Below, one piece after another: positions 10,532-31,220 of a DNA stretch of 64,000 nt. The notes below the pieces were generated by a model. The model saw nothing but the letters and a program-made list of their open reading frames with translations. It was not told where the DNA came from and ran no database searches. How positions within the stretch are numbered: position 1 is the stretch's first letter; every line of letters starts with the position of its first letter. This DNA comes from Eledone cirrhosa. Its lineage: Eukaryota. The stretch covers positions 78,182,001 to 78,246,000 of the forward strand of contig OZ024742.1 in assembly GCA_964016885.1 (NCBI GenBank), written 5' to 3'. A program made the position numbers and the translations under genes.

Positions 10532-10594
10532 TTCGCCATACCGAGAAGAATTGTTTCACAGCTAAGGTGAAACAATTGTTCTCGGTATGGTGAA
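10532..10594. repeat. 28-bp-arm hairpin palindrome containing the 3' half of a hammerhead
   Basis: ttcgccataccgagaagaattgtttcac-agctaag-gtGAAAC-AATT-GTT-ctcggtatggtgaa, next to (TA)n. Confidence 0.8.
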
Positions 10595-11579
10595 CTAACT
10601 GTTGTGTAACCACTTCTACCTAACTCGTCCCTTGGACTGAGTGCTCTACCACTACAGATATTACCTTCCAGTGTTCCACCACTATATATATATATACATA
10701 TATAGTTCAAGGTAACCAAGACTAACAATCAATGCAATGACACAAACTCTTCTTAGTTCCATGCTATTTGGAAAAGAAACACGAATACTTCAGTGTATTG
10801 GACTTTAATTCATCACCAGGAAAGAGCAAAGTTCGGAAGGAGTTGAAAGGTTGAGAGGGGGGGGGGGTATCGAGATGGATGAAGTGGGCAGACTAGTAGT
10901 GGTAAATCCGAGTCTTTCGTTGGTTCTTTCCTTTGTGTGAAAATGTAATGCATTTTATGCGTGTTTGTGTCGTTGAGTTCATTGTTTCTTGGTGTGCGTG
11001 TTAGTGGGTTTGTGAGTGTATGGCAAAGATGGAAGAGGTTTTATTGATGTGTTTGAAGGTGTTAACAGTATGTGTGTATTTATATATATATATATATGTG
11101 TGTGTGTGTGTGTGTGTGTGTGTGTGTGTGTGTGTGTGTGTGTGTGTACATATATATATATGCATATGTATATACATGCATATATATGTGTGTGTGTGTG
11201 TGTCTTCATTGCACCACATCGTTTTGCTGTGTTGTTTCTCTCTACTCCTCTCATACATACATTATATATATATATATATATATATATGTGTGTGTGTGTG
11301 TAAGTGTGTGTATACTATATATGTATGCATAGTCTTTTATTATATATACATGTGTGTGCATGCTTGAATATTTACGAGCGTGCTGTTATGCAAGTTACAT
11401 ACGTGTAAATTTGTAATTTCGTTCCCATTCAAATAACAGTGTTTCCAAATACAATTTAACGAAGCTCAATCGATATTGACAATCTCAGAAGAAAGGATAA
11501 AACCAAAGTAGAAGAGCATTAGGACTTAACGTAAAGACAAACACAAATTGCTCTACTTAACAAAACAACAATGTTTTAC

Positions 11580-12260
11580 AGTTATCTGTGTTATTGATAA
11601 AATTAGGACAAATAACAGAAGGACAACCAACGACAAAAACAAGGCAAAACCAAACACTTTTTTTAAGAGGAAGCTTTAAAAATATTTTTTGAAAAAAATA
11701 AAAATACAAACGAAAGACACAGAACTCCAACGTTATCTGCTGTTTAGGTGGACTTAGGCAGTTTCGACTCCCAACCAATGGTATTGCTAGTACACACGGG
11801 GTCACAGCGTCTAATACAAGCCAAACGCTGTCCAGTGGAGTAAAAAACGAAGGACAAAACATATATATCTATTAAAATATAACAAGTACACATAGAATTT
11901 ATGTAATGCCAGGAAAACATATGGTGCTTCTTATAGCACGAAAGTTTTAGGGATGAAAAAAGAAGAGAAGGAAGAGAAAAAAAGCAAGAAGAAAGTAAGA
12001 TGAGTTAAAAAATTATGAGCCTTATAAATTAAGGGGGTTAGAAAGGATAACACATTCGTCACAGTGTATTAATGATAAAATTAGGAGTATTAACAGAAAG
12101 GTCAAGACAGCGAACGAAAATAATGCAAAACGAAAGAACATTTTTTACGGAGAACCTTAAAAAATTGTTTCTTTTATAAAATATTAAAATACAAACGAAA
12201 GACACAGAACTGTCATCGGTCGTTGAGGTGGGTTATAGCGTCTGACACAAGCCAGACGCT
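11580..12260. repeat. Diverged direct repeat pair (about 11580-11830 and 12060-12260)
   Basis: Shared blocks 'tgataaaattagga', 'aaaatacaaacgaaagacacagaact' and 'acaagcca.acgct'. Confidence 0.6.
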
Positions 12261-12476
12261 CAGATTATAAAGTTACAAACAAATAATATATCAAAAACAA
12301 ATCTAAACATTTACACAAAATAATTGCAGTCATATAAAAACAAAATAATTTTCCTAATTATTTTTCGCATCTCTCTCTATCTATATATATATATATATAT
12401 ACATATATATATATATATATAAATTAATAAAAACAATGAATAAAAACAAAGAAACAGTTCCTTATATTAAAAAATT

Positions 12477-12611
12477 CATCATTTTACGATCGTTTCTAGG
12501 TAATATATGTGTGTGTTGGTATGTATATCATATAGATCTATGTAAAAATTTTACAAATTATCAGAGGAATATACATACCTACACATATATATGCTGTCTT
12601 CAGAAATAATG
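12477..12611 (-). ncRNA. Type-I hammerhead with very long stem II, at the PLE 3' end
   Basis: Minus strand: cauuauuu-CUGAAGA-[~100 nt imperfect hairpin]-GAAAC-GAUC-GUA-aaaugaug; 8-bp stem I, palindromic loop 3. Confidence 0.75.
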
Positions 12612-13444
12612 ATATTTGTTTATTGAAAAAAACGAACAAAGATTTAATATAATAGGTCTGTTTGGGAACAGGTTTTGAATTGACCAATAGAAAAGTAGTA
12701 AGTGGTCAAGTTGATCAAATAGTAGTAGTAGAAATTTAATTTAGGGGTTGAGGAATGCAAACTTCAGTTTTGAATGGAAAGAATACTTTGAATGAAAGGT
12801 TTACTTTGGGGATGAAAAGAGGTCAAGCCGGTGAAAGGTACACGAAAATTTGATGTTATTAAAGAATAATGTTAATGTTAAAATCGAAGGAGAATAAAAT
12901 TTTAGGGTAAAGTGAGAAATACCAATCTTATTTAAAACACAAGGAATTTAGATCTATAACAAGAAATTAAATTAATTTAATAGATAGGTATGCTTATAGG
13001 GATAAATTTATATTAATTCATATAGATGTGATAAATAAGAGTTAGACGTTATTAAATAATGTTAAAAACGAAGGAAAAAAAATTTGGGGGATAAATGTAT
13101 TAGTGAGAAATACCAAACTTATATAAAACTATAAGGAATTTAGATTCATAACAGGAAATTAAAATAGTTTATATGTATACTTATCGGTATTAATTTTAGG
13201 AAAAGAGAGATGTAAAAGGGAAATAAAATTATGAAGTTCTCAGTAGTAAAATACTAATTATAGGTTAACTCAATTAAAAATTAAAAACTAATTATAATAA
13301 TTTGTAAAATATAAGTGTAAGGTGTATATTAATTAGGTTTATAATATTTGAAAGTCCTTCTAATTTTATAATTGCACGATATAATTAATTCTTGTCGCTT
13401 ATTTAATAGGATATCCTTAGATTTCATTATTTCAAAAAGTTCCT

Positions 13445-13631
13445 ATGGCGGTGGATTGGCAGTATCGGTAGAGGGCCGGACGCCATGTTTTCCAGCATAG
13501 TTACGTCCCTTTACGATCTGAGTTCAAATCCCGCCGAGGTTGACTTTGCCTTTCATCCTTACGGGGTCGATAAAATAAAGTACCAGTAATACACTGGGTA
13601 ATTGCTGGCCTTGTGCCGAAAAGTAGAAACA
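13445..13631 (+). mobile_element. tRNA-derived SINE, full length, with 19-bp target-site duplication
   Basis: A-box-like 'tggcagtatcggtag', B-box 'gagttcaaatcc', tail 'gtagaaacaatta'; perfect TSD attatttcaaaaagttcct at 13426-13444 and 13632-13650. Confidence 0.9.
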
Positions 13632-30000: not shown

Positions 30001-30252
30001 TACCTAATTCATTTTAGTTTCATGTTGTCTTTATTTCTGCAGCTATTAAGAAAATCCGTTCTAGATTTCAGGGTCCAAACGTCAGCAAACCAGCAAGGGT
30101 GACAAGCAAGAAGTTAACATTATCAGCAGGCACATACTATATATATGTACATATATATATGTATGTACACACGCACATGCACAAATACATCGCGCGCACA
30201 CACACACACACACACACACACACACACACATATATATATATATATATGTGTA

Positions 30253-30439
30253 TACCGTATTTCCCGAAAATAAGTCTCAAAAATCTAAAAATCCTAAAAT
30301 AAGTCTCAAAAATCTACCATGCGTCCTGGAGGCTGAAGGTTGCAATTTTCATTATTATTATTTTTTCTCAAATTTTAGAATGTCAAAATTAGGGTGTGTC
30401 CTCGAGTATGAAGCGTCTTCGGCGCCGGGAAATACGGTA
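30253..30439. mobile_element. Tc1/mariner-superfamily MITE
   Basis: Terminal inverted repeats taccgtatttccc / gggaaatacggta in a TA context. Confidence 0.75.
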
Positions 30440-30464
30440 TATATATATATATATATATATATAA

Positions 30465-30870
30465 AGTGCGCTAGCAGCCGCCGATGTGTATATCGCCATA
30501 AATAAAGAATGTATAACCGAGACTGCATCAACGTGTATAAATATATACACATATCTAATATGAAGCCATGTAAAGATGGCCGAAAATATGAATTTCCCTG
30601 CAAATTGAAAAAAAAAGGATAAACATCTTTAATCGATTTTCGGATCTTATTGCACCTTCATCAAAAGACGTGTATATCATCCAATTCACCATATATAATT
30701 GATGGGTATATATTCGCATTCTGAAATACACGTACTGATTTACATATAATTAGCGCTCTTGTTGTTAATTAAGATATATATTAAAACGTGCGCTAGCAGT
30801 CGAAGTGTATGATAAAGTCATATATATAGGGTGTGTATTAGCCCTCGTGTTGGTAATTAAGATGTATATC
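30465..30870 (-). mobile_element. Non-coding PLE-like element with decayed hammerhead at 30623-30671 (family shared with 59725-59995)
   Basis: Minus strand: acgucuu-uUGAUGA-aggugcaauaagaucc-GAAA-A-UCGA-UUA-aagaugu; 'gcgctagcag' recurs at 30468 and 30790 and at 59726. Confidence 0.6.
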
Positions 30871-31027
30871 AATAAATGCTAATCATGCAAAGATTACATC
30901 ATCAATAGGCACGAATGTGATATCAACAGATGCTAACAGAATTACGTGAAGTAGTTATGTTGGTATGCTGATATGCTGCTGTTAAAATAGTAGTATCACC
31001 ATGTAAAGCGAGCGTATATATATATAA

Positions 31028-31220
31028 GAAAAGGTTCAGGACCCCGACGGCAGAGCTCAAGCCATTTCGACGGCTATTTCTTGACCAGAAATAGCCGTCG
31101 AAACGGCTTGAGCTCTGCCGTCGGGGTCCTGAACCTTTTCGTATTACCCACTCTACTACTTAAAGTATCGAGTACTCTGGTGCGTTATGGTCCAACTGGT
31201 TCCTTACTACACTTCCTTCG
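31028..31220 (+). mobile_element. Small element: 54-bp-arm palindrome (31028-31140) plus ~80-bp tail, in (TA)n
   Basis: Arms 31028-31081 and 31087-31140 with one mismatch, loop tgacc; right arm contains GAAAC-GGC(ttgagctct)GCC-GTC. Confidence 0.85.

Follow-up and report, generated by a model that had tools for sequence, protein, structure and literature searches.

How Penelope-like elements (PLEs) come by their tandem and inverted ends has been named as an open question (PMC8557442). It is posed here by a stretch of 64,000 nt from the genome of Eledone cirrhosa (contig OZ024742.1, positions 78,182,001 to 78,246,000; hereafter the window), which carries three palindromes that each contain one half of a hammerhead ribozyme. 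The palindromes are almost certainly the 5'-truncated ends of two Hydra-like PLE families, A and B. A first-pass annotation had proposed that the first cDNA snapped back on the hairpin of ribozyme stem II and primed its own second strand. The arms and junctions of related copies argue for a different origin, with twin priming the probable route: each arm would be a reverse transcript of its own, primed at one of the two ends of a cut (TA)n target, and the two would then have been joined head-to-head. The fuller account, in which the family A arms also end where the reverse transcriptase (RT) ran off the capped end of its template, appears fairly likely, as does the putative capped start itself.

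The palindromes are present at 10532-10594, 14533-14615 and 31028-31140, with folding z-scores against dinucleotide shuffling of -20.7, -11.7 and -10.2 respectively; none of 200 shuffles folded as well. GAAAC, a stem III with a palindromic loop and GUH, together the 3' half of a type I hammerhead, occur at every one of the three sites, and a motif scan confirmed that the CUGANGA core is absent from them all, so that none of the window copies has the catalytic core that an active ribozyme would carry 5' of stem II. An Rfam scan returned no hammerhead match at the three palindromes and only a weak HH9 match elsewhere in the window. Each unit is ordered as (TA)n, tail-less inverted arm, junction, tailed arm and (TA)n. 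The palindromes had been described as abutting (TA)n; the units do lie inside such arrays, but the palindrome itself touches (TA)n at the tail-less end only, and a tail of 64-79 nt intervenes on the other side. Family A accounts for two units in opposite orientations (14455-14614, minus strand, and 31025-31222) and family B for one (10532-10682; Table 1), sites 10532 and 14533 having been detected by self-BLAST of the window.

The positions of the junctions differ between the three sites. The symmetry axis had been placed in the stem II loop at both 10532 and 31028, which holds for 10532 only, where the junction falls within the true 2-bp stem II and is one substitution off the product predicted by snap-back. 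At 31028 the supposed loop, tgacc, is not the natural stem II loop of family A, which is ~30 nt long, but the junction, with the inverted arm ending 59 nt and the direct arm starting 57 nt upstream of an internal TA. Site 14533 had been seen as a collapsed version of the other two. It does belong to the same family as 31028 (its element, with the tail at 14455-14533, shows 87.5% identity to the 31028 element over 112 nt by self-BLAST), but it lies on the minus strand and its junction is at the stem III loop; GAAAC is confined to the tail-less arm, which is 16 nt longer than the tailed arm (-48 versus -32). A 47-nt short-read contig, possibly from the same sample, matches 31065-31111 over the 31028 junction, with fewer than 31 letters on each side, while among contigs from three DNA-like runs of one sample none spanned the element. 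The window elements themselves are ordinary dead PLE stubs.

Assignment of these stubs to PLEs is supported by their relatives in the source genome (3.0 Gb, the scope of all genome-wide counts given here), where a 43-nt tail motif of family A has 1,170 exact matches and a 37-nt tail motif of family B has 420. Pieces of open reading frames (ORFs) upstream of A and B ends contain, by motif, the YRDD of the RT and the AYIG/SYVG of a GIY-YIG domain, as in endonuclease-positive (EN+) PLEs; a Pfam search gave no match for four such pieces of the two families. Likeness to the Hydra clade (PMC8557442) extends to DKT in place of DKG (family A in locus L299, family B in L243 and L244), a CxCx5C linker, the absence of CCHH with no CxxC inside the GIY-YIG core, CxxC and CxH around E/N, the hammerhead, and insertion into (TA)n, as read in translated A and B pieces and in their flanks. 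The RWK motif was not found literally (L243 of family B has LKWR, and the family A N-terminus was not recovered), and the likeness is one of motifs. The long A and B copies fetched are broken, 5'-truncated inverted pairs. Identity as a non-LTR retrozyme was considered and rejected: that class is defined by tandem hammerhead-delimited monomers (10.64898/2026.07.22.740005), whereas the sampled copies are dispersed inverted or solo ends. A third PLE, family C, served as a comparison set; its stem II is strong, and its pattern has 5,535 matches genome-wide.

Long copies of both A and B carry a hammerhead in the pseudo-long terminal repeat (pLTR), which appears intact by sequence and may self-cleave. 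The first-pass expectation that longer copies would have CUGANGA 5' of the hairpin is borne out for family B, which reads CTGA(A/G)GA in a canonical arrangement (CCGAG-CUGANGA...GAAAC-AAUU-GUU-CUCGG, with a 2-bp stem II and ACAATTGT as loop III). Family A instead carries the variant TTGANAA, present in ~78 of the first 100 of 1,843 matches, with CTGANGA in none (hand count). Its core is therefore UUGANAA, the U3-A8 variant described for Schistosoma PLEs (PMC4209133). The natural family A copy L253 folds as a three-way hammerhead with a loop II of ~30 nt, and L254 does likewise in its centroid structure.

Family A is itself heterogeneous. One subfamily (L257, L264, L265, L275 and L276) has the core CTGAGAA, with C3 opposite A8 in the simple register, and thus either a broken core or a shifted register; CTGA-type rows number 15 among the first 100 of the 1,843 core matches. 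The stem II strands covary between subfamilies, A2 among them (CTATTTC/GAAATAG versus CTAGATC/GATCTAG), and L013 and L123 have one strand of each type. At L032, L024 and L230, A and B stubs stand side by side in shared (TA)n tracts, which suggests that such arrays are hit repeatedly.

Arm anatomy was surveyed in the first 90 tail-pattern matches per family in genome order (90/1,170 for A and 90/420 for B); similarity-ranked match lists are biased toward the window arms and were kept out of the counts. Both arms were mapped on natural long copies, with positions counted from the T of the internal TA between arm and tail, and B rows touched by a reference containing its own inverted arm were filtered out. 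An adjacent inverted arm was recognized by the automated filter in 55/90 A and 41/90 B copies (35 and 49 rows, respectively, failed it), and it started within a few nucleotides of the internal TA in 49 of the 55 and 39 of the 41. Of the 55 family A junctions, 32 contain inserted bases, 15 show microhomology and 8 are blunt. All but one are distinct (54/55), which points to new formation at each insertion and argues against spread in the manner of miniature inverted-repeat transposable elements (MITEs). The tail-less arm is more than 5 nt longer in 25 of these copies, the tailed arm in only 7, and the two are within 5 nt of each other in 23 (p=0.002); site 14533 exemplifies the first class. Genome-wide, family A includes 213 perfect palindromes with a 1-nt spacer, which is too tight for an intramolecular loop and so favours two independent cDNAs. 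The arms of one copy are also more alike than the arms of different copies (mean 17.0 versus 14.6 of 19; 17 pairs).

In family A, both kinds of arm end at a defined site. Among arm ends that reach -54 (n=75), 60 stop by -61, including 39 at -59 to -61, and 5 pass -67; the stop is the A of TT-AGT(C/T) within the stem II loop. By hand count, 64 of the first 100 of 10,799 family A arm matches genome-wide break 0-4 nt from this A, and ~63/100 break likewise in subfamily A2 (also a hand count), where the stem II sequence is different and the stop reads TT-AGTT. No pile-up of A arm ends was seen at the ribozyme cut site, 40 nt off. With the initiator consensus being YYANWYY, the TT-AGTCC stop site fits an initiator-like element, and a TATA-like TATTTAT lies 29-31 nt upstream of the stop A in 29/30 intact A copies; a downstream promoter element at +28, sought by eye, had no match.

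The stop site is also marked by an untemplated base. One-base spacers are G:C in 44 of the first 50 of 213 loci, where the genomic base is T, versus 1/50 at a control site 6 nt away (first 50 of 154; Fisher p=3e-20). Read with the tail on the right, 10 of the 18 tailed loci among 20 fetched (17 tails called by script and 1 by eye) had G as the extra base and 8 had C, so either arm can carry it; the fetched loci represent several subfamilies. Two-base spacers (n=50) include CG 5 times, CC/GG 10 times and GC never, and the extra base is G in 12/41 single-arm A copies, where the background is 12% (p=0.003). For L1, an extra G at the 5' junction of full-length copies has been credited to the cap (PMC11702581), and the Penelope transcript of D. 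virilis starts in the pLTR, where the Penelope promoter is located (PMC2377424).

These features can be accommodated by twin priming as follows. A nuclease would cut both strands of a (TA)n array, after which each target end would prime at a different RT start, one at the end of the tail and one at the internal TA, with sense RNA as the template, and two antisense cDNAs would extend toward the RNA 5' end. For family A, the template would mostly be a capped RNA that is transcribed from the promoter of the element itself and starts within ribozyme loop II; the RT would run off its 5' end after about 60 or 140 nt, adding C opposite the cap. The cDNA ends would then be joined bluntly, with added bases or by microhomology, and each would template the second strand of the other. 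The ribozyme stems and palindromic loops may sometimes provide the microhomology, as at site 14533, at family B loci L097, L099, L113 and L183, and in family C. Precedent for the early steps comes from the anole PLE PAc, which in vitro cuts and extends both strands and has two RT start sites that bound the tail (PMC11167929). Since family A RNA would begin in loop II without the catalytic core, the core would look 'replaced' in the palindromes, as the first-pass annotation had put it; its suggestion that these PLE ends were copied from RNA uncleaved at GUH is borne out. The arm-length asymmetry, the 1-nt spacers, the extra G:C on either arm and a 6:6 placement of the loop in family C (see below) favour two RNA-primed strands over self-priming. 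More tentatively, a complex of two RNAs and two RTs might make the inverted ends of PLEs, both target ends priming at the two starts that bound the tail, with a family A promoter inside the hammerhead giving an mRNA unable to self-cleave, whose capped end would lead to thousands of ~200-nt palindromic stubs that record the start to the base. Within such a complex the loop III palindrome may pair the two core-less templates, in the manner of a retroviral dimerisation signal.

Several observations weigh against this account, particularly against the capped start. Both the cap and the start site are read from junction sequences only (a look-up with a long A copy listed no RNA run containing it, which counts neither for nor against), and the remaining 36 of the 100 family A arm matches read through the stop A. 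The TATTTAT is at the same time a stem II strand, and two copies have TAGATCAT in its place. Some arms pass the stop A by 1-2 nt, as judged from AA/TT (13) and AT (4) among the two-base spacers (17/50). In single-arm A copies C outnumbers G (24/41), though C there matches the 66% flank background, and the extra base could be plain untemplated C. Family B has no sharp arm end, and what C/G signal it has, at an initiator-like A at -74, is weak (~6-8/100 rows, hand count). In family C the pile-up (16/40 ends, at 25877-25879) falls on a CATATG palindrome, and an extra base is not clearly seen there. With respect to twin priming itself, family B has no arm-length bias (10 versus 14), later one-sided deletions could inflate the 25:7 asymmetry of family A, the likeness of arms within a copy fits DNA copying as well as a single source locus, and the automated mapping overlooked some inverted arms that are visible by eye.

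Snap-back on the copied stem II hairpin should keep the natural stem II loop between the arms, and this product was sought in all three families. In its favour, A junctions do cluster in the stem II region, the 10532 junction comes close to the predicted product, and family C has 15 exact loci genome-wide with the natural loop between the arms. The loop-retaining product is nevertheless absent from family A, both genome-wide (0/3 pattern matches versus 10,799 arm matches, with the last letter of the pattern dropping about a quarter of cases) and among the 55 sampled palindromes, and in family B, where stem II is just 2 bp, the exact product was found at none of 26 loci with a 3-9 nt spacer inside stem II, one locus being off by an extra C. 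The predicted pile-up of inversion axes at stem II is seen for the region in family A but not in B, where both ends fall in stem II in 1/41 sampled junctions. Even in family C the strong stem II is read through in 96 of the first 100 rows and the loop kept at 2 loci, and the 12 loop-retaining loci fetched divide evenly: the loop belongs to the tailed arm at 6, one of which has a complex left side, and to the tail-less arm at the other 6. Since no tail can be templated by a first strand that lacks one, at least half of these loci need two RNA-primed strands annealed via the stem. The tail-less arm is, moreover, often the longer of the two, contrary to snap-back. As the source of the palindromes snap-back is thus highly improbable; the hairpin is an occasional annealing site rather than a primer, and snap-back is at most a minor route. 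Only slightly more credible is self-priming on an antisense transcript, a very unlikely explanation here that was published for rotifer Penelope elements from palindromes at inverted junctions (PMC3846280), so that self-priming as an origin of PLE palindromes had been described earlier. An antisense template could provide the sense-strand tail, but the extra base and the initiator-like context are both of sense polarity, and in vitro, with nicked AT-rich DNA, reverse transcription of sense RNA begins at the boundaries of the tail (PMC11167929).

A broader form of folding back, improbable though less so, would have the tailed cDNA fold at any internal microhomology, be copied to the internal TA and be trimmed there by a nuclease, with later deletions shortening the centre. 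Private variants common to both arms of one copy, the 15/55 junctions with microhomology, the usually longer tailed arm of long B copies and the nuclease resolution already proposed for the tail (PMC8557442) are all compatible with it. It predicts, however, that the tailed arm is at least as long as the tail-less arm, whereas family A shows the reverse (25:7); it cannot make loops of 0-1 nt and leaves the untemplated C at the tail-less arm end unexplained. That the palindromes are MITE-like units re-amplifying as such, the route suggested by the first-pass annotation, is scarcely plausible. Some junctions do recur genome-wide (213, 154 and 99 loci), but almost every junction among the 55 consecutive copies is its own, the 20 copies retrieved for the most frequent junction come from several subfamilies and have the spacer in either orientation, and the termini are asymmetric, with a tail on one side in place of symmetric terminal inverted repeats. 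Twin priming could also be correct while the family A stop reflects a nuclease cut, a splice acceptor (TTTAG) or stalling of the RT at an inner hairpin. This is unlikely; in its favour, the stop site lies in the 3' strand of the predicted inner hairpin and overlaps TTTAG, and the stop is known from DNA junctions. Against a stall, the RT gets through the stronger outer stem first, and through stem II of family C in nearly all rows, and A2 keeps the stop register despite its different sequence. The bases past the extra C vary, so that no constant upstream exon is seen and splicing is disfavoured, and cleavage by the ribozyme would be expected 40 nt away, where arm ends do not accumulate.

Much of what surrounds twin priming is known from other systems. 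In the published PLE layout a tailed copy has a tail-less inverted one immediately 5' of it (PMC8557442; PMC3846280; PMC2377424), and the inverted copies of EN+ PLEs share with A and B palindromic junctions, AT-rich or (TA)n targets and a one-sided tail. They differ in tail length (64 and 79 nt here versus 30-40 published) and in that most family A units are only ~200 nt, with one defined end bearing the extra G:C; the mechanism is left open in the available text of the EN+ PLE papers, or antisense self-priming is proposed. The PAc element (Poseidon, Anolis) has in common two internal RT starts bounding the tail, both strands cut and extended, and the use of uncleaved RNA, while the accessible part of that report leaves the inverted arm unexplained, describes no start-site run-off and states the second-strand steps as unvalidated (PMC11167929). 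Twin priming of L1 likewise involves a second target end that primes a second cDNA, microhomology joins and an extra G at full-length 5' ends (PMC11702581). L1 cDNAs, however, are described as covering adjacent, barely overlapping parts of the RNA, whereas here both cover the same segment from fixed starts, which yields a palindrome. The hammerheads resemble those described for PLEs (PMC4209133) in type I topology, a palindromic loop III, U3-A8 covariation (family A) and the many solo motifs from truncated PLEs; family A departs from them in its 5-bp stem III and a ~30-nt loop II that apparently houses the RNA start, and the window copies in being core-less.

The layout, the hammerheads and the self-priming proposal are thus all in print already. 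Searches of the open-access literature, supplements excluded (which may bear on novelty), turned up no description of twin priming or cap run-off as the origin of inverted PLE ends. With about ten thousand independent junctions, these families separate models of PLE end formation. The model predicts that capped transcripts begin at an exact position inside the ribozyme and that insertions can draw on two templates, and it would account for the commonness of solo, core-less hammerhead halves in PLE-rich genomes.

Table 1. Features of the PLE ends in the window, with the comparison family C.
Feature	Positions	Strand	Description and basis
Family A tail-less inverted arm	31025..31085	-	Starts at fixed internal TA, ends 1 nt short of inferred RNA 5' end; alignment to natural long copy L012
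Family A direct arm	31085..31141	+	Runs to TA; stem II 3' strand, GAAAC 31100-31104, stem III with GAGCTC loop, GUC 31120-31122, stem I 3' strand 31123-31127; alignment and fold of intact copies L253/L254
Family A internal TA (inferred proximal RT start) and 79-nt tail to (TA)n (inferred distal RT start)	31142..31222	+	Exact matches to 43-nt family tail motif
Family A tail and internal TA (14534-14535)	14455..14535	-	87.5% to 31110-31221
Family A direct arm	14536..14565	-	Begins at stem III palindromic loop 32 nt upstream of TA, without GAAAC; arm alignment
Family A tail-less inverted arm	14567..14614	+	To 48 nt upstream of TA, GAAAC 14573-14577; arm alignment
Family B inverted arm	10532..10559	-	50 to 22 nt upstream of TA, usual outer ~24 nt missing; arm alignment
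Family B direct arm	10561..10616	+	From stem II loop: GAAAC 10569-10573, AATT loop, GUU 10578-10580, stem I 3' strand 10581-10585; one unmatched base 10560; arm alignment
Family B internal TA and 64-nt tail ending at (TA)n	10617..10682	+	Exact matches to 37-nt tail motif
Family C, third PLE (comparison set)	23232..26100	+	241-nt inverted ends; intact CTGAAGA core at 26000 (+) and 23332 (-); GIY-YIG ORF piece 24171-24887; Pfam GIY-YIG E=0.0012, below curated cut-off

Other repeats are present in the window. A (TA)n-flanked element of ~450 bp at 3169-3619 is bounded by imperfect terminal inverted repeats (self-match of 67%); its minus strand carries what looks like an intact type I hammerhead (CTGATGA at 3333; Rfam HH9, E=0.18). 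A GIY-YIG-like PLE ORF fragment at 13559-14056 (-), about 400 nt from site 14533, is apparently a separate insertion. A dispersed repeat of ~185 bp occurs at 13451-13637, 19928-20112, 34023-34341, 40949-41139 and 60093-60243; its reverse strand carries a motif that we take to be B-box-like, and it is presumably a tRNA-derived short interspersed element (SINE). Long, largely open non-LTR retrotransposon ORFs lie at 45959-49384 (-), 50616-53156 (-) and 53275-58874 (+), the last comprising ORF1 plus an endonuclease-RT ORF2. Large inverted duplicates with 94-98% identity pair 39446-41880 with 61675-63940 and 33762-33992 with 34418-34648.

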